A DNA stretch of 64,000 nt from Planctomycetia bacterium (GTDB lineage: Bacteria > Planctomycetota > MHYJ01 > WSZJ01). The stretch is from the NCBI GenBank assembly GCA_020849035.1, contig JADLHC010000110.1:5269-69268 (forward strand), written 5' to 3'. A program made the position numbers and the translations under genes. The notes below the pieces were generated by a model. It saw only the letters and a list, made by a program, of their open reading frames with translations. It made no database searches and had not been told where the DNA came from. Of the stretch, positions 54,712-63,330 are shown one piece after another (the first letter of the stretch is position 1; every line of letters starts with the position of its first letter).

Positions 54712-55917
54712 TCAGGGCTGGTCGAACGGCCGCCGCGTCGCACGCGGCGCGCATCTCCGAGAGCTTCCGATCGCCCGGCAACAGCTGCCGGCGGAGCGGC
54801 GATTCCCGAGTTCGCGCGCGATCTCGATCGCCTGCTGGTACAGCACCTCCGCCTCCCCCTCGCGGCCGCTCGCTGCCGCGACGTCGGCCAGGGCGCCCAG
54901 CGCGAGCGCTTCGGCCCGGCGGTTGCCGGACGCGCGGTGAAGCTCCAGCGCGGCGCGGAAGTGCGCGACGGACTCCTCCACGCGTCCGGTCTCCATGCAG
55001 ATGCGGGCCGTCATGTCCAGGGTGTTCGCCTCGGACCGGCGGTCCCCGATTTCACGGTGGATGGCGAGCGCGGCCTGCACGAGGCGCTCCGCCTCCTCCC
55101 GCCTTCCCTGCGCGGAACGGATCCCTGCAATCGCCGCCATCGTCGCCGCCTCTTCCGCGCGGAGCCCGAACTCGCGATGGCGATCGAGGGCTTCCGTGAG
55201 GAGCGCCTCTGCCTCCTGCGGTTTGCCCGCGATGCGAAGCAGCTCTCCCTGGTGCCCGAGGAGGATGCCCTCCAGCCGCCGGTCCCCGCAGGAGCGGAAA
55301 ATGTCGACCGCTTCGGCGGCCGCGCGCTCGGAGTCGGCGATGCGTCCGGTTTCCTTGCAGAGGAGGCTCAGGCTGGCCAGGACCCGCCCGACGGAATGCG
55401 AGTCGCCGAGGGCCCGGAATTCCTCGAGGGCCTGCGAGTAGAGCGGCTCGGCCACGGTGTGCCGGCCCGCCAGCGCAGCCGCATGGCCGGCCTTCCCCAC
55501 GGCCTGTGCGCGCTCGGCGCCGCTGGAAAGCTCAGCGAGTCGCATCCACGCGGCCCTCGCCGCGTCGAGCCGGTAGGCGCGCTCGGCAAGTTGCCCTCCC
55601 CGACGGAGGTAGATGCGCTCGGCGTCGCGAAGCGCGCCTCGCGGCGCAGGGTCCGCGAGAGCGGCGTGGGTCGCGAGCTCGAGCGCGAACGGGTCGCTCG
55701 CGTGGGGCACCCACGGTTCGCGCGTCCCGTACACCAGCGGCGCCCCCGCCGGGGGCCGCCCGCCGCACTTCGCCTCGATCAGCTCAAAGGCCAGCCGGTG
55801 CAGCCGGGTGCGGTCGCCGGGAAGCTGCAACTGGTAGGCCGCGTCGCGCAGGAGCGCGTGGCGGAAGAGGTACGCGACTTCGGCCGGGGGCGGAGTGTCT
55901 GCGCTCACAGGCAGCAT
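54712..55917 (-). CDS. TPR (TPR_12-like) protein starting at a STAND winged-helix-like motif, paralog 1
   Basis: N-terminus AEVAYLFRHALLRDAAYQLQLPGDRTRLHRLAFELIEAKCGGRP, followed by about 40-aa TPR units (LALGALADVAAASGREGEAEVLYQQAIEIARELGNRR and others). Confidence 0.7.
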   Translation of the reverse strand: MLPVSADTPPPAEVAYLFRHALLRDAAYQLQLPGDRTRLHRLAFELIEAKCGGRPPAGAPLVYGTREPWVPHASDPFALELATHAALADPAPRGALRDAERIYLRRGGQLAERAYRLDAARAAWMRLAELSSGAERAQAVGKAGHAAALAGRHTVAEPLYSQALEEFRALGDSHSVGRVLASLSLLCKETGRIADSERAAAEAVDIFRSCGDRRLEGILLGHQGELLRIAGKPQEAEALLTEALDRHREFGLRAEEAATMAAIAGIRSAQGRREEAERLVQAALAIHREIGDRRSEANTLDMTARICMETGRVEESVAHFRAALELHRASGNRRAEALALGALADVAAASGREGEAEVLYQQAIEIARELGNRRSAGSCCRAIGSSRRCAPRATRRPFDQP

Positions 55918-55974
55918 GGTACGCGTATTGGGGTCCCGCCCATGGGACTCGGGCCGGTCCGGGAAGTCGCCCGG

Positions 55975-56448
55975 CTACCCCCAGATCTCCATCTTCATGC
56001 GAACGGTCGTCACGGGACCGCCCTCGGGACACTCGAACAGCGGATCAGGTCCTTCGTCCTCGACCTGGAGTCCGCGACCCTGGAACCACCTCCACGCACC
56101 GGTCGCCTTCACCGTGTCCAATCGAAGCCTGCGACAACCCCCCCGGCGTCCTGCGGAGATCACCGCGAAGACCAGGGCCTCGCCGAGGCCGCGTCTCCTC
56201 CAGGCAGGGTCAACGGCAAGTCCGAAGAGCGTCACTTCAACTCCCTCGATCGCGTACTCGACGGTGCCAACGACGGCTCCCTTCTGTCGGACGACGAGGC
56301 GAAAGGACTCTCCCGGGACCGATATTGCTCGACGCTGCCGGGCCGTTTCTGTGGGGCGGTAGTGAAATCGCAACTCGGCGAACACGCGGTCCCGAAGCGC
56401 CCTGGCCGGCCCTTCGTCCGCCGCTTCGGCTCTGCAGACAGTGATCAC
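55975..56448 (-). CDS. GNAT family N-acetyltransferase
   Basis: Motif A LFGLAVDPAWRRRGLGEALV. GTG start at 56448 forms a GTGA overlap with the stop of the upstream kinase-TPR frame. Confidence 0.75.
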   Translation of the reverse strand: MITVCRAEAADEGPARALRDRVFAELRFHYRPTETARQRRAISVPGESFRLVVRQKGAVVGTVEYAIEGVEVTLFGLAVDPAWRRRGLGEALVFAVISAGRRGGCRRLRLDTVKATGAWRWFQGRGLQVEDEGPDPLFECPEGGPVTTVRMKMEIWG

Positions 56449-59400
56449 CTGCGGAGCGATTCTGCGGCCCGCGAGCGAAGTCCCGGATCCGTTGCGAGCC
56501 GCGCGGCCTGCTCGAGGTCCGGCCGCGCGCCGGCGGCGTCGCCGAGCTCGGCGAGCATTTCGCCGCGGGAGAGGAGGGCCTCGGCGCAGCGGGGGTCGAG
56601 GCCGAGGGCGGCGTTGAACTCGGCGAGGGCGTCGTTGTTGGCGTTGACGCCGCCTTTCTGGCGGATGGCGGCGCCGTGGCGGGCGCGGGCGGCGGCGCAC
56701 CTGGGGGCGAGGGCGACGGCCTGCCGGGCGTCGGCGAACGCGCGGTCGGCGTCGCGGCGCGCGAGGTGGACGAAGGCGCGGTGGGCGAAGGCGTCGGCGG
56801 AGCGCGGGGCGGAGCCCACGGCGGCCTCGGCGTCGGCGAGCGCGCCGGGGACGTCGCCGGAGTCGAGGCGCGCCGACGAGCGGGCGAGGAGCGCTTCCAC
56901 GAGCGCCGGGGCGCGGCGGACGGCCTCGTCGAGTTCGCGGAGGGCGTCGCCGTCGCGGCCGAGGGCGCGCAGGGCGGCGGCGTAGCGGACGCGGTGGGAG
57001 GCGGAGTCGGGGTGGCGGCGGACGGCCTCGCGGAGATCCTCGGCGGCGGCGCGAGGTCGAGCGCGCGCGTGAAGTCGGCGAGCGCTTCCCCGGACTGTCC
57101 GCAAGCCAGGCGAAGGTGGCCGCGGTGGAGGTAGGACTCGGGGGACTCGGCGGCCTTGAGGGACGCGTCGTAGTCGGCGAGGGCGCCGGGGACGTCGCCG
57201 CGGCGCTCGCGGCCGATGCCGCGGAGGCGGAGGAGCGCCGGGTCGGCGGGGCGGGCGCGCAGGGCGGTCTCGGCGTCGTCGAGCGCGGCGGGGTCGCCGG
57301 TGCGGAGGCGCGCTTCGCAGCGTTGCCGCAAGGCGACGACGTCGCGCGGCCGGAATTTCAGGGCCTCGGAGAACGCGGCGATCGCGTCGGCCTCCTTGCC
57401 GTGCAGCCGCAGCCACGCGCGCCCGGCCCACGCCCAGCCGTCCGGGTCCGTCACCGTCGCCTTTGCGTACTCGTCGAGCTGCCGCGCCGCCGTCTCGCCG
57501 TGGCCGTCCGCCAGCGCGAGGATCCCCGCCGCCAGCATCACCTCGCGCCGCTCGCGCGTGTGCCCCTGCACGAGCTTCAGCTCCTCCTCGATCTCCCGCC
57601 GGAGCTCCGACTCGTCCGCGACGTCGCCGCGGTCGTGCCCGTGCCGCAGCGCGCCGTAGCGCTCGAGGCGCAGCATCGCGCGCTCGAGGTGGGCCGTGGG
57701 GAAATACGCCGAGGAGGCGATGGCGCGATCGAGCCACGCAAGCGCGTCGTCGCGCCGCCCCTCGACGCGGTACGCCCGCGCCATCTCGAGGCAGGCGTCG
57801 GGGTTCTTCGGCTGCTCCCGCAGCGCCTCGCGGAACTCGCCGCGCGCGGACTCCGCGAGCGGCGCGAGCTCCGCGACCGTCCAGTCCTTCGTGGACAGCA
57901 GGCGGTCGGCGCGGAGCAGGAGGGCCCTCCCGGCGTCCGCGTGGACGCGCGCGCGCTCGGCCGCCAGCTCCGCGTCGAGGGCCTTGCGCGAGAGCGAGCG
58001 GCGCCAGAGCCAGACGAGCACGACGAGATTCACGGCGCCCGCCGCGACGACCGTCGGCACGCCGCGCGGGTCCGCGGCCCCCGTGATCCCCGCGACGCAG
58101 TACGCGCCCAGCAGGATCCCGAGGCAGGAAGACACCACCACCGGGACCAGCGTGGCGCGGTTGCGACGCAACTTCCGCTTCACCCGCCTCCACCCCGTCA
58201 CCGGCTGCGCCCAGACCGCCTCGCCGCGCCGGTGCCGCGAAAGATCCTCGGCGAACGCGTGCGCGTCCGCGTACCGGTCCTCGCGGCGCTTCTCCATCGC
58301 CTTCAGGCACACCGCCTCAAGCTCCTCGTCCGCCTCGCGCGAGCTCGTCGCCGGCCGCGCCGGCTCGTCCTCGAGAATCCGCCGGTACAGGTCCACCAGC
58401 GACTCCGCCTCGAACGGCATCTTCCCCGTCAGCATCTCGTACAGCATCACCCCCAGCGAGTACACGTCCGTCCGCGCGTCCACCTCCGCCGCCTTCCCCT
58501 GCACCTGCTCGGGCGCCATGTACTGCGGCGTCCCGATCACCGCCTGCTCCCGCGTCAGCTTCGTCCCGAACGCCTCCGCGTGCGCCACGCCGAAGTCCGT
58601 CAGCACCACGCGCCCGCCCCGGTCCACCAGCACGTTGCTCGGCTTCAGGTCCCGGTGAATCACCCCCTTGCCGTGCGCGAACGCCACCGCCCGCGCCACG
58701 TCCTCCAGCATCCGCAGCAGCTCGGGAAGCGCCGTCCGCTTCGCCGCGAGGATGTGGGCCAGCGTCGTGCCTTCGACGTAGTCCATCGCGATGAAGTGCA
58801 CACTCTGCCCCATCGCGTCGCGCGCCATCGCGACCTCGTGGATCGAGACGATGTTCGGGTGAGCGAGCTGCGCCGCGATCGCCGCCTCCCGGTGCAGCCG
58901 CGCGATCACCTTCGCCGTGGACTCGTTCTCCTTCAGCACCTTCAGCGCCACCCGCCGCTTCAGCTCCGGGTCCTCCGCCTCGTGCACCACCGCCACGCCG
59001 CCGCGCCCGATCTCCCGGATCAGCGCGTACTTCCCCAGCCTCGGCCGCGTGTCCGTCGGCGCCTGCACCGCCGGCCGGATCCCGCTCCCCGCCGCCGGCT
59101 TCTTCGCCGCCGCCGGCGCGTGCCCCAGCTCGAGGCCGCACTTCACGCACCGCAGCTTCACCTCCGGCGCATGCCCCGACACGTCGTAGACGCGCCCGCA
59201 CTCGAGGCAGACGCGCAGGCCGACGTCCTGCAGGCCGGCGACGTCGGTGAAGCGCTGGGGGGTGAGCACGCCGCGCGACACGAGCACGTCCGACAGCCGC
59301 ACGTCCTCGCCGGCCGCGCGCCGCCGGTCGCGTTCGTCGAGGCACTCTTCCAGCTGCGCCGTGGTCAGGAACGACTTCTCCAGCGCCGTGCGGCACAACG

Positions 59401-59476
59401 CGGCGTCGCGCGCCTCCTCGCCCGCCGTCTCGGCGAGGAAGTTGCGCAGGCGGTCGGCGGTAGAGGGGGAGGTCAT
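56445..59476 (-). pseudogene. Ser/Thr kinase - TM - TPR protein with an apparent frameshift near 57041-57056
   Basis: Kinase motifs VALKVLKE, HRDLKPSNVLV, DFGVA, GTPQYMAPE. TM segment LVPVVVSSCLGILLGAYCVAGI. TPR sequence continues in frame A up to ADFTRALDLAP, then in another frame (AAEDLREAVRRHPD...) down to 56445. Confidence 0.7.
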
Positions 59477-59519
59477 CGCGGGCGAGTGTACAGCGCCCGC
59501 TCCGTGCGATCATGGGCCC

Positions 59520-61175
59520 GTGTCGACCGCCGAGGAAGCCTACGGATTCCGCCACGCTCTGTTGCGGGAAGCGGCGTACCAGCTGCAGCTCCCCGGCGAC
59601 CGTGCGCGGCTCCACAGGCTCGCGATCCTGGCCACGGAGGCGGCCTGCGGCGGCCGCCTGCCGGCTCCGGGCCCGCTGAGCGTCACCCTGGCCGGCGAGG
59701 CTCCCGCGCATCCGGCCGACGCGTTCGCCGCCGAGCTGGCCGACCACGCGCGCTTCGCCGGCGATTCGCCGGACGTCGCCGCGCTCCGCCGCGCGTTCCT
59801 CCGCCGCGCCGCCCTCCATGCCGAGCGGTCCTGGCGGCTGGAAGAGGCGAAGAGGCGCTGGCGCGAGTTGGCCGACGCGTCGGAAGGCGCGGACCGGGGC
59901 GTGGCGCTCTGCAGGGCCGGCGTCGTCGCCTATCGGGGCGGACAGCCGCGGGCCGCCGAGGAACTCGCCTCGGCCGCGGTCGCGATCCTGCGCGGCGCGG
60001 GCGATCCGGCGACCACGGCCGTCGCCCTCGAAACCCTGGTCATGGCCCTGAAGGACCTGGGCCGCCTCGCCGACGCGGACGCCCTCGCCGCCGAGGCGCT
60101 CGAAGCCGCGCGGAGAGCGGGAGACACTTCCCGCATCGGGTCCGTGCTCCAGCGCGCGGCCGTCATCCACCAGACCCTCGGTCGCGTGGACGATGCCGAA
60201 CGCGACTTCCTCGAGGCCCGCAGGCTGTTCGCGGAGATCGGCAACGCCCACGGGGGAGCCGTCGTCACCGGGAGCCTGGCGATCCTCTACCAGCAGCGCG
60301 GCCGGATCGCGGAAGCGGAGGCGGCCTACCGTGAGGCGATCGCGGCCCATCGCGCGTCCGGCGACCGCCGCTCAGCGGGCATCGGCCTCCAGGGACTCGC
60401 CGGGATCCTGCGAACGACCGGGAGGCTGACGGAAGCGCGGGTCGCGCAGGCCGAAGCCCTCGCCCTCGCCAGGGACGCCGGCGACCGGATCTCCGAGGGC
60501 GTCGCACTGGGCCAGGGCGCCGTGCTGCTCAAGGAGGAGGGACGATTCGAGGAAGCGGAGCGGGCGTTCCGGGACGCGCTGGCGGTTTCGCGCGAGACGG
60601 GCGCCCGCAGCGCCGAGGGCGTCGACCTGCTCAACCTCGGGAACCTCCGCGTGAACATGTCCCGGCCCCAGGACGCCCGGCGCAACTACGCGGAAGCCCT
60701 CGCGATCTTCCGGGAAATCGGAGAACACCGCATGGCGGCCTCCGTCCTTACGAACCTTGCCAGCCTGCAGGTGTCCGCCGGTGAGGTGGAGGAGGCGCGC
60801 CGCAACCTGGAGTCGGCCGTCGAAACGCACCGCGCCGTCCGCGATCCCTTTGCCCTGGGCGTCGCCACCGGCCTGCTGGCGAGGGTCCACGCCGCCGACG
60901 GCAACATCCCCGAGGCGCTTCGCCAGTCTGACGAAGCCCTCGGAATCCTGCGCAGCTGCGGCCACCGCGTCTTCGAGGGCGAGGTCCTCTGCAACGCGTC
61001 GCGAATCCTCCTGCAGGCGGGGCGCACGGAAGAGGCCCGCGCCTCCTGGAACGCGGGCGCGAGCATCCTCCGCGAGCTCGGGAGCACTTCGAGGCTCAAG
61101 CGCCAGGAGGAGGAGTGCCGCGCCGCCTGCGCGAAGGCCGGGATCGCCCCATTCGGGATGCCGGAGAAGAGCTGA
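59520..61175 (+). CDS. TPR protein starting at a STAND winged-helix-like motif, paralog 2
   Basis: GTG start, then VSTAEEAYGFRHALLREAAYQLQLPGDRARLHRLAILATEAACGGRLP and about ten TPR_12-like units. Confidence 0.7.
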   Translation: MSTAEEAYGFRHALLREAAYQLQLPGDRARLHRLAILATEAACGGRLPAPGPLSVTLAGEAPAHPADAFAAELADHARFAGDSPDVAALRRAFLRRAALHAERSWRLEEAKRRWRELADASEGADRGVALCRAGVVAYRGGQPRAAEELASAAVAILRGAGDPATTAVALETLVMALKDLGRLADADALAAEALEAARRAGDTSRIGSVLQRAAVIHQTLGRVDDAERDFLEARRLFAEIGNAHGGAVVTGSLAILYQQRGRIAEAEAAYREAIAAHRASGDRRSAGIGLQGLAGILRTTGRLTEARVAQAEALALARDAGDRISEGVALGQGAVLLKEEGRFEEAERAFRDALAVSRETGARSAEGVDLLNLGNLRVNMSRPQDARRNYAEALAIFREIGEHRMAASVLTNLASLQVSAGEVEEARRNLESAVETHRAVRDPFALGVATGLLARVHAADGNIPEALRQSDEALGILRSCGHRVFEGEVLCNASRILLQAGRTEEARASWNAGASILRELGSTSRLKRQEEECRAACAKAGIAPFGMPEKS

Positions 61176-61224
61176 CGTTGCCGGCCGCGGTCCTGCCGGA
61201 CCCGGTGTGCGATCATGGGCCCGC

Positions 61225-62748
61225 ATGACTGCCGAGCAGGCCTTCCTGTTCCGCCACGCTCTCCTTCGCGACGCCGCGTACCAGCTTCAGCTCCCCGCGG
61301 ATCGTGCGAGGCTGCACGGGCTCTCCGTGGCCGCGATCGAGACGCTCTGCGGGTCCAGGCCGGCGGAAGGAGGAGACGCGGCGATTCCCCATGCGACCGA
61401 CGCATTCGCCGAGGAACTGGCGGAGCATGCCCGGGACGCCGGGGAGACTTGGCGAGACGTTCGCGTCCTGTACGTGCGGAGGGCCGCGGAGTCGGCCGCC
61501 CGGAGATTCCAGCCGGCCGCTGAGTCGCGCTGGTGGCTCGAGCTGGCGGGCCTGGTTTCTTCCGCGCAGGAACGGCGGGTCGCGCTCGCTAAGGCAGGAT
61601 CGGCCAGCCTCACGGCGGGGCGGTTCCGTGACGCCGAGAGAGTCCTTCGGGAGGCCCGCGACCTGCATGCCGGCCGCACGGATGGCGCAGTCCTCCGCTC
61701 GCTCGGCACCGCGCTCCGCGAACTGGGGCGAGTCCCGGAAGCGGTCGCGAGCCTCCGGAGCGCCCTCCGGGTCTTCCGCCGCGCGGGCGACGCCGCGGGA
61801 AGCAGCCAGACGCTGCTGCAGCTGGCTTCTCTACGACAGGACACCGGCCGGCCACGCGAGGCGGAACGCATCCTGCGCGGCCTCATGTGCGAGGACGCTC
61901 CCGGAGGCACGCCCGGCCTGCGCGCCTCGGCCGCCGCAGTCCTGGCCCGCGTTTGCGCACGCACCGGCCGCGCCGCCGAGGCCGCACACCTTTACCGCCT
62001 CGCCCTCCGCCACCTCCGCGCCACCGGCCAGCATCGCGGCGAGGGCATCGTCCTGGGGAATCTCGGCAACCTGCTCGCGGACTCGGGCCGGCTCCGCGAC
62101 GCCGGCCGCGCTTACGCCGCCGCGCTCGTCCTTCACCGGACCCACGGCCTCCGCCGCTCGGAGGCCGTCCTTCTCGCGAACGTCGGCCGGATGCTCGAGC
62201 GGAGGCGACGGTATCCGGAGGCGGGGGCGCGATACCGTGAAGCGCTGGCGCTGATGCGGGAGTCCGGCGACCGGCGTTCCGAAGGCGTGACGTTGGGCAA
62301 CCTCGCCAACACCGAGCGGGCGGCGGGCCGCCTCGAGGAGGCAGGCCTCCTCTACGCGGAGGCGCTGGCTCTTCTGCGGGCCGTGCACGACAGGCATGGA
62401 GAAGGCATCGCGCTGGGAAATGCGGCCGACCTGTACGCGCAGCGCGGGGACCCTGCGGCCGCGGATCGCCTGTTCCGGGAGGCGCTCTCCGTACACCGGA
62501 GCGTGAGGAACCGTCGCGACGAAGGGACGGACCGGCTCCGCCACGCGGTGGTCCTCGCAACCCTGGGCCGGTCGGCCGAGGCGCGCCGCCAGTGGCGCGC
62601 GGGGCGGGCGCGGATGGCGGGCTTCGGCAGGAGGCCTCCGGCGAAACTGCGGGGGCAGATGCGAAGGCTCCTGAAGGACGCCCGGATCCCCGCCGGCGGC
62701 GCGGCGCGGCGGCAGGCCCCTCCTGCGCCAACCCGTCCGCGCCGCTGA
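61225..62748 (+). CDS. TPR protein starting at a STAND winged-helix-like motif, paralog 3
   Basis: MTAEQAFLFRHALLRDAAYQLQLPADRARLHGLSVAAIETLCGSRP, then TPR_12-like units. The ORF-track start at 60757 lies inside the previous gene. Confidence 0.7.
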   Translation: MTAEQAFLFRHALLRDAAYQLQLPADRARLHGLSVAAIETLCGSRPAEGGDAAIPHATDAFAEELAEHARDAGETWRDVRVLYVRRAAESAARRFQPAAESRWWLELAGLVSSAQERRVALAKAGSASLTAGRFRDAERVLREARDLHAGRTDGAVLRSLGTALRELGRVPEAVASLRSALRVFRRAGDAAGSSQTLLQLASLRQDTGRPREAERILRGLMCEDAPGGTPGLRASAAAVLARVCARTGRAAEAAHLYRLALRHLRATGQHRGEGIVLGNLGNLLADSGRLRDAGRAYAAALVLHRTHGLRRSEAVLLANVGRMLERRRRYPEAGARYREALALMRESGDRRSEGVTLGNLANTERAAGRLEEAGLLYAEALALLRAVHDRHGEGIALGNAADLYAQRGDPAAADRLFREALSVHRSVRNRRDEGTDRLRHAVVLATLGRSAEARRQWRAGRARMAGFGRRPPAKLRGQMRRLLKDARIPAGGAARRQAPPAPTRPRR

Positions 62749-62820
62749 ACTTCGCGCAGGCCGGATTCCTGGCGCTTCCGCATGCGATCATGCCCTCGCG
62801 TGAACGCCGAAGCGGCCTAA

Positions 62821-63330
62821 ATGTTCCGACACGCAGTTCTCCGCGACGCCGCTTACCAGCTCCAGCTCCCGCGCGACCGCGCGCGCGCTCACGCCCTCGC
62901 ATTCGAGGCGATCGAGGAGCTCTGCGGCGGACGGCCCGGCGACGCCCCGCTCGACTCGACCAGTCATTCTTCTTTCTGCGCCCATCCGACGGACCCCTTC
63001 GCCGAGGGTCTGGCCGGGCACGCCCTCCTGGGGACGGCTGCGCGGCCGGACCTTGGCGCCCTGGAGGTCACGTATCTCGCCCGGGCCGCGGCCGTCGCCG
63101 AGCGCAGCTTTCGCCAGGCGGACGCCGCCCGGCTCTGGCTGCGCGTCGCGGAACTGACCGGGCAGTAGGTCCTGGCGGACGCGTGGCGCAAGGCGGGCAT
63201 GGCCTTCCGTGACATCGATGCGCAGCGCTCCGAGTCCCTCCGCCGCCGCCCCGCTCCTGCTACCCTGTTGATCCCGGATCGGGAGCGAATCCGCTGTGAA
63301 TGCCATGAGCTTTCCGAATCTTGTCTGTGA
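62821..63330 (+). pseudogene. Decayed fourth paralog of the FRHALLRDAAYQLQLP TPR family
   Basis: MFRHAVLRDAAYQLQLPRDRARAHALAFEAIEELCGGRP. TAA just upstream in the conserved leader. In-frame TAG at 63166-63168 with homology continuing (AWRKAGMAFRD). The TPR body is missing. Confidence 0.55.

Follow-up and report, generated by a model that had tools for sequence, protein, structure and literature searches.

The TPR genes of the window and their N-terminal motif

The stretch of DNA analysed here (the window, 64,000 nucleotides of contig JADLHC010000110.1 from a Planctomycetia bacterium) contains three intact genes and one decayed copy encoding tetratricopeptide repeat (TPR) proteins with a common N-terminus, M-x-A-E-x-A-Y-x-FRHALLRDAAYQLQLPxDRARLH...E..CGGRP, which is apparent both in the open reading frame (ORF) listing and in an alignment (Table 1). 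An earlier note, made from the sequence alone, had already recognised this motif at the start of the four genes. The residues F R H A. L R. A A Y Q L Q L P. D R. R. H, followed by E..CG.R.P, are invariant in all four window copies. In Pfam the window proteins match TPR families only; members 1, 2 and 3 score 100.7, 134.8 and 114.2 bits against TPR_12 (PF13424), for which the gathering threshold is 30.1 bits, and TPR_MalT scores reach 77 bits. Neither AAA_16 nor any other NTPase family was matched in the four proteins, the first ~120 residues gave no Pfam match, and no TPR was matched in the decayed member 4. In this last copy an in-frame TAA (62818-62820) takes the place of the conserved Tyr, leaving an open remnant of 115 amino acids (aa; 62821-63168). 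The earlier note had carried the copy on to 63330, but nothing resembling a TPR remnant is found beyond 63168. In many members of the family the last TPR is followed by a conserved tail, ...MR.ACA.AG(V/I).PF (e.g. window 61100-61175; EECRAACAKAGIAPFGMPEKS in gene 2).

Table 1. Coordinates of the TPR family genes, their upstream hexamers and the adjacent kinase gene in the window
Feature	Position	Strand	Remarks
Family member 1	54712..55908	-	398 aa from GTG 55908 (401 aa from ATG 55917); winged-helix His motif, arm, TPR_12 repeats; 157 bits to the family N-terminal profile
TACCAT -10-like hexamer	55916..55921	-	7 nucleotides upstream of the member 1 GTG
Ser/Thr kinase-transmembrane-TPR gene	56445..59476	-	frameshifted near 57050-57061 in a GCC run; a neighbour of the family
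GATCAT -10-like hexamer	59508..59513	+	6 nucleotides upstream of the member 2 GTG; part of the shared GTGCGATCATGGGCCCG leader
Family member 2	59520..61175	+	551 aa; divergent from the kinase gene; profile 149.7 bits; TPR_MalT 77.4 bits
GATCAT -10-like hexamer	61211..61216	+	8 nucleotides upstream of the member 3 ATG; leader sequence as in member 2
Family member 3	61225..62748	+	507 aa; TPR solenoid in the AlphaFold2 model
Decayed member 4	62800..63168	+	N-terminal module only; start GTG 62800 (VNAEAA*MFRH)

The N-terminal motif is, as judged from its sequence pattern and its place in related proteins, the winged-helix His motif of STAND/NLR ATPases, F-x-H-x-x-x-(R/Q)-(D/E)-h-x-A. The winged-helix consensus in NLRs is FxHxxxQEhxA, in which the His contacts the ADP beta-phosphate (Apaf-1 His438, NLRC4 His443), and NLRC4 turns constitutively active upon loss of this residue (PMC7583971). 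Nine long proteins encoded by the window's own genome have the architecture Guanylate_cyc-AAA_16-TPR and carry the motif 143-165 residues after the end of AAA_16, in the form FRHALLRDAAY followed by S/G-LL-T/P-K-x-DR.RLH. Representatives from the Chloroflexota, Actinomycetota and Alphaproteobacteria carry it ~300-340 residues after Walker A, in Guanylate_cyc-AAA_16-TPR or AAA_16-TPR-LuxR proteins, so that the likeness to a post-NTPase winged-helix helix proposed in the earlier note is borne out. Of the winged-helix domain the window proteins hold the final strand and the His helix alone, the remainder of the domain being absent, and the His is invariant in the family although its proteins carry no nucleotide-binding domain. 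A search of the N-terminal profile described below against PDB sequences returned one spurious designed-repeat match only (E = 0.017).

These genes belong to a large family whose proteins have so far carried no annotation beyond 'tetratricopeptide repeat protein'. Searching the window's own assembly (G000; 5.42 Mb, 349 contigs, 89% complete) with residues 1-119 of gene 1 gave 54 matches, and a profile built from 31 family N-termini splits the own-genome matches into 42 NTPase-less members (63-163 bits) and the nine long proteins (23-34 bits). Against these 42 copies, seven other genomes of the genus contain 13-77 and 13 further metagenome-assembled genomes (MAGs) contain 16-46. The same gene structure recurs in at least 20 independent MAGs, some of them assemblies of 3-5 contigs, and the residues F, R, H, R, Y, P, R and H of the motif are invariant across 57 sequences from many MAGs. 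In the largest array (G000:C152:12900-28900, locus L130) eight family genes follow one another and a ninth lies 4 kb upstream of them. Five start codons of this array are directly preceded by tandem heptamer repeats ((C/A)TCAACC, 3-5 units) in place of the TANNNT box described below.

The start codons of the family are placed consistently, an ATG or GTG being found 6-7 codons ahead of the motif Tyr in 28 of 31 members, and in many members genome-wide an in-frame stop occurs 3-25 codons upstream of the start. As the G+C content around the window genes is ~72-75%, long upstream open frames carry no meaning by themselves; the four members that have such frames show no Pfam domain in them, and no P-loop was detected upstream of family genes in the Planctomycetota loci scanned. 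When the profile was run against a library of 1.84 billion proteins, 188 clusters were matched at E <= 1e-30, and in all of the best 150 library proteins, which stem from independent gene callers, the match begins at residue 1-75, mostly at residue 1-5. A hidden upstream NTPase, or an assembly error concealing one, was rejected on the strength of the close upstream stops, the lack of Pfam domains in the scanned upstream frames and the 150 independent gene calls that start at the motif. We therefore agree with the earlier note that the NTPase is absent from every copy, an in-frame upstream NTPase having been looked for and not found.

It might be supposed that full-length genes left the copies behind as silent cassettes or pseudogene debris, kept alike by recombination, or that the copies are an artefact of MAG assembly. 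The many copies and arrays, the decayed copy in the window and a few other short ones (233-263 aa) would be in keeping with this idea, to which we nevertheless give almost no credence. Intact ORFs of more than 350 aa are present in 36 of the 42 copies despite pairwise identities between within-genome paralogs of 49% at most (median 38%), start codons are conserved, and the recurrence of the gene structure in independent MAGs, including those of 3-5 contigs, is not expected of an artefact. Amino-acid identity is 0.67-0.77 over the first 30 aligned positions versus ~0.33 in the TPRs, while synonymous codon differences at identical residues amount to 0.40-0.44 in the N-terminus and 0.49-0.57 elsewhere; this near-equal synonymous divergence indicates that the N-terminus is held by protein-level selection and not by gene conversion. 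A TANNNT hexamer starts 12-14 nucleotides before the start codon in 17 of 39 copies, and at exactly -12 in twelve of them, compared with a background of 0.36%, and -10 boxes at such a fixed distance are likewise not expected of debris. The spacing fits leaderless transcripts with their own promoters. In the window, the TACCAT ahead of member 1 suggests a promoter of this leaderless type, and GTG 55908 is most likely the start of that gene rather than ATG 55917, because the -10-like box sits 7 nucleotides upstream of the GTG and the ATG falls within the box. In the GATCAT of members 2 and 3 a G replaces T at position 1, so that there is no strict TANNNT match. When the own copies were set against a sample of 32 from other species, no ortholog pair reached the 55% identity that would serve for a ratio of non-synonymous to synonymous substitution (dN/dS), and within-genome pairs have saturated dS (0.74-0.99), which renders their omega of 0.5-0.75 unreliable. 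As to the expansion by tandem duplication envisaged in the earlier note, the family is indeed multi-copy and lies partly in tandem arrays, but the identities given above are not those of recent duplicates.

A complementary single-copy gene

All AAA_16 matches of the window's own genome were screened for proteins that end where the motif would be expected. This identified a single-copy gene on a contig other than that of the window (G000:C29:14911-17295 (-), loci L124 and L131), whose product of 795 aa we refer to as the N-half, the TPR proteins being the C-halves. It contains tandem class III cyclase-like domains, an AAA_16 NTPase (GEPGLGKT), a helical domain and a partial winged helix, and no TPR. 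A separate AAA_16 gene elsewhere in the genome, for which the earlier note had advised a search, is therefore present, and the proposal that the TPR proteins are orphan stand-alone modules loses ground, as this conserved cyclase-NTPase gene ends exactly where the family begins. Other truncated-NTPase candidates were rejected as complementary halves, namely C130:87708 (a NERD/UvrD helicase), C244 (a sigma-54 activator), C105 (AAA_16 only) and C287 (an AAA_16-GAF-HTH_8 regulator).

The C-terminus of the N-half reads ...EKEGVLIPAPTGGATTS, its winged helix ending ...VKHASILGVRFLTRVLGELLKRSGAVTRPLEELLVEAEKEGVLIPAPTGGATTS-stop. At that place the full-length paralogs read ...LKAASVLGRVFW...ES-KRRGLVFAQGPSLLPGDDQ-YLFRHAL, with the pattern ...RGLVxxxxSLLPGD just ahead of YxFRH. 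When compared by eye with these paralogs, the N-half stops in the loop between the two wing strands, and the TPR family (M-S-A-E-x-A-Y-L-FRH) starts in the same loop. The end of the N-half is conserved; the 18 alignable orthologs are 787-803 aa long and all stop 9-18 residues after (E/R)EGVL(I/V)PA. One ortholog is present in 7 of 8 genomes of the genus (72-73% identity) and in 18 of 20 MAGs holding the TPR family (60-73% identity), although in one MAG the gene is broken across two contig ends, and it is single-copy wherever found. The two family-holding MAGs that lack it are G056 (= G006), which is only 85% complete, and G048, for which completeness is not reported. The composition of contig C29 (G+C 0.71) fits that of the genome (0.70). 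The Guanylate_cyc match in the N-half scores 42.8 bits, and residues D30 and D80 in the first cyclase domain and N340 and R344 in the second are invariant in 23 sequences; they would be the catalytic metal-binding Asp pair and the transition-state Asn/Arg pair. Judged from these motifs rather than from a structural superposition, the two domains resemble a C1/C2-like pseudo-heterodimer with one active site per chain.

The two halves align to consecutive parts of single long proteins. Residues 1-762 of the N-half align to ~10-778 of Chloroflexota proteins (L104, L105, L108, L110 and L114; BLASTP, E 1e-84 to 1e-99), the matches to L104 and L105 (E 1e-94 to 1e-99) comparing with E 1e-26 or worse for the long paralogs of its own genome, and residues 4-445 of window gene 3 align to residues 801-1197 of L104, which is its best long match in BLASTP. 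Within L104 the part covered by the N-half is residues 27-778. A fused relative was encountered in G089, a Planctomycetota genome of another family (L161:2768-6079 (-) = G089:C65). This protein of 1103 aa possesses a tandem cyclase, AAA_16, a complete winged helix and a short TPR part, and reads MRRFIPEF...ERERVILPEAMRGAAGAEAAYLFRHALMRDAAYHLHLPSARACLH...TPR, with the junction stretch ...ERERVILPEAMRGAAGAEAAYLFRHALMRDAAYHLHLP.... Its identity to the N-half is 41% over residues 2-792, the genome has no other family match, and the protein offers a natural reference for the junction. The tail ...MR.ACA.AG(V/I).PF noted above is not present in it.

The ~130 residues common to short and long proteins were used for a phylogenetic tree, in which one branch (Shimodaira-Hasegawa-like approximate likelihood ratio test, SH-aLRT, 87) parts 99 short from 27 long sequences, and the long sequences closest to the short clade are the Chloroflexota proteins named above, of the tandem-cyclase type. 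A tree that includes G089 (147 columns) is poorly resolved, with G089 at the boundary between short and long sequences and the short clade no longer forming one branch. The distribution of the two halves was surveyed in an even sample of 251 Planctomycetota genomes from 203 genera (N-half E <= 1e-60, family E <= 1e-12). Both occur in exactly the same 13 genomes, and the other 238 have neither; three of the 13 are of the window's genus, nine come from four genera of the family f66, and the last is G089, with its single fused copy. Near-closed MAGs have both halves on one contig (e.g. contig C1 of G043), hence mis-binning is no explanation. The f66 genera are placed in the same phylum as the window's genus, not in the same class, and the split system is missing from all sampled genomes that belong to other families of the window's own order and class. 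The distribution over the window's genus and f66 suggests horizontal transfer or extensive loss.

Our interpretation is that a tandem-cyclase STAND gene was split inside its winged helix, after which the enzyme half was kept as a single copy and the sensor half was massively amplified and diversified; we put the probability of this reading at roughly 0.9. The ancestor would have been a tandem-cyclase/AAA_16 NTPase/winged-helix/TPR protein of the type that is still intact in Chloroflexota and in one Planctomycetota genome, and the break would lie in the loop between the two wing strands. The N-half would thereby have kept both class III cyclase domains, the NTPase, the helical domain and the winged helix up to the first wing strand (...EGVLIPA and a short variable tail), and the C-half would begin with the second wing strand and the His helix (M-x-AE-x-AY-x-FRHALLRDAAY), continue with the arm and the TPR solenoid, and exist as 13-77 diverged copies. 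An origin and a candidate partner are thereby available for ~1-2% of what an uncultured Planctomycetota lineage encodes.

Candidate partners of the TPR proteins

The question then arises as to what the amplified proteins act upon. We are inclined, if only slightly, to favour a scheme in which the C-halves dock on the N-half and supply the ADP-sensing His in trans, based on the complementary ends, the extreme conservation of the junction, the shared phyletic pattern and the gene fusion/fission 'Rosetta stone' principle (reportedly set out in 1999 by Marcotte et al. and by Enright et al.), among others. Each TPR protein would dock by strand addition on the truncated winged helix of the single N-half and would provide the His whose contact with the ADP beta-phosphate locks STAND ATPases in the off state, so that many alternative sensors could gate one engine producing cAMP or cGMP. 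A more specific picture, to which we would give somewhat under an even chance, is that of one chassis devoid of its own His and tens of plug-in TPR sensors that serve as detachable, ligand-dependent locks on ADP/ATP exchange and cyclic-nucleotide synthesis. If true, this would constitute a combinatorial, repertoire-type signalling or immune-like system built by within-domain gene fission.

Several observations weigh against an assembly of the two halves. Their co-occurrence rests on two to three independent lineages (families f1, f66 and f43) and could result from shared descent alone. The halves are never adjacent in the loci examined, the closest being ~18 kb apart in G041, and one N-half to 13-77 C-halves would be an unusual stoichiometry. 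The AlphaFold2 model of the C-half alone places the would-be wing strand inside a helix. For the N-half, AlphaFold2 gives a predicted local distance difference test score (pLDDT) of mostly 85-95 in the cyclase, NTPase and helical domains and of 31-63 in the truncated winged helix (residues 696-795); the low values fit an incomplete domain, but they may merely reflect the shallow alignment of 23 sequences. Finally, two family loci (C36 and C148) abut full-length cyclase-STAND paralogs, which are possible alternative or additional partners.

The principal competing explanation accepts the fission as described above and regards the TPR proteins as by now autonomous peptide- or protein-binding scaffolds, in which the motif is a solenoid cap or a new binding or dimerisation surface, and the N-half as an independent cyclase without a sensor. 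The model of gene 3 speaks for such autonomy, being an all-helical, self-contained TPR solenoid of high confidence (pLDDT 92.4, predicted template-modelling score 0.87) in which the helices at residues 3-21 and 24-41, corresponding to the N-terminal motif, form the first helical hairpin. Foldseek matches of this model in the PDB are limited to generic peptide-binding TPR scaffolds (LGN/Pins, OGT), which agrees with a scaffold role and says nothing on the N-terminal motif itself. The lack of a conserved gene neighbour and the separation of the halves in the loci examined would also be expected of independent proteins. On the other hand, a mere cap is not expected to be the most conserved part of the protein (0.67-0.77 versus ~0.33), with eight residues invariant over the 57 sequences. 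Moreover, the invariant His senses the nucleotide in a domain that these proteins have lost, and the phyletic pattern is identical to that of an N-half lacking exactly this element. We therefore regard autonomous function as unlikely, while considering it the main rival to docking on the N-half.

It is also conceivable that the TPR proteins modulate the ~10 full-length cyclase-AAA_16-TPR paralogs of their own genome, either as decoys or as hetero-oligomer partners that compete with the winged helix or sensor arm in cis. A long cyclase-STAND paralog is found less than 1 kb away from three of the 30 family loci, compared with 0.52 expected (P ~0.016). On C36 the order of genes is short-short-LONG-short, and on C148 a short gene abuts a long one; this enrichment stems from two independent loci only. 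The C36 genes (G000:C36:16449-24218, locus L129) are on the same strand and tightly packed, the stop and start of the first two short genes overlapping by 4 nucleotides, and the LONG gene encodes a full-length cyclase-AAA_16-TPR protein (1201-aa frame); it is possible that the run is an operon linking the short and long forms. Against a partnership with the long paralogs as the role of the family, these belong to a different clade with the motif variant ...AAYSLLTKRDR.. (23-34 versus 63-163 bits), they already own a His motif, and the phyletic pattern of the family follows the truncated N-half. We consider this explanation improbable.

The earlier note had suggested that the TPR proteins might serve neighbouring Ser/Thr kinases in trans, as sensors or scaffolds. 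Large kinase genes are located beside family loci on C110 (the window), C20, C33 and C148, and the arrangement is divergent in the window, with coordinates suggesting the same at C20 and C33. However, adjacency does not exceed chance, a kinase domain being found within 2 kb of 3 of 30 family loci versus 3.6 expected (P = 0.72) in a genome with ~115 kinase genes, and the largest arrays (C152 and C36) have no kinase nearby. The kinase link consequently finds no support in gene order and appears highly improbable. An all-against-all BLAST of the flanking ORFs revealed no recurrent neighbour family other than kinases. In the kinase-transmembrane-TPR gene of the window the frame changes in the GCC-rich run CTCGCGCCGCCGCCGAGG, and the TPR part runs on in another frame to the stop at 56445-56447; the break may stem from an error of sequencing or assembly or be a genuine frameshift. 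A GNAT gene (ending at 55975) begins right at the stop of this kinase gene.

Relation to known STAND and NLR systems

STAND/NLR ATPases act as central switches in immunity and signalling throughout all domains of life. To our knowledge every description of them is of one chain that unites sensor, winged-helix His and NTPase, all acting in cis, and full-text searches of a library of papers found no published account of a split STAND system such as the one proposed here. The nearest relatives are the class III adenylate cyclase-AAA_16(STAND)-TPR proteins, e.g. those of the Mycobacterium tuberculosis Rv0386/Rv1358/Rv2488c type. The window genes share with these, and with the MalT clade of STAND proteins, the winged-helix His motif (FRHALLRDAAY), the arm and a TPR_12/TPR_MalT sensor, and homology was shown directly to proteins of cyclase-AAA_16-TPR architecture, namely the nine of the own genome and those of Chloroflexota, Alphaproteobacteria and Actinomycetota. 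In contrast to such proteins, the window genes encode neither a cyclase nor a P-loop NTPase and keep no more of the winged helix than its last strand and helix, the missing parts are encoded by a separate single-copy gene, and the sensor half is amplified to tens of copies.

The motif also resembles the winged-helix His motif of NLRs and Apaf-1 (the MHD motif in plant NLRs) in its sequence pattern and its place in the domain order, and the His is invariant in the family as noted above. Whereas the NLR His acts in cis on the nucleotide bound by its own chain, that of the family is located on a polypeptide without a nucleotide-binding domain. STAND parts are able to reassemble from separate polypeptides, as observed when split Rx was complemented artificially in trans (PMC3510248). 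The Rx split was engineered and follows domain borders, whereas that in Planctomycetota would have arisen naturally within the winged helix, and its sensors are left with no NTPase. Like other Rosetta stone pairs, the two halves are separate genes in one genome and one fused gene in another, with a shared phyletic profile; they differ from such pairs in that one fission product is amplified 13-77 fold and that the break lies within a domain rather than between domains.

If the sensor half, cut inside the winged helix and amplified together with its His, does act on a single-copy enzyme half, the family would amount to a ready-made genetic dissection of the STAND switch and would show the effect of a His lock supplied in trans and the way in which sensors compete for the engine. 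In NAIP-NLRC4 and in the plant NRC sensor/helper networks many sensors feed one executor, and each partner is a complete NLR with its own NTPase. The logic would be the same in the Planctomycetota, a diversified sensor repertoire converging on a single output module, and the split STAND system would then represent a bacterial parallel to these sensor/helper NLR networks.

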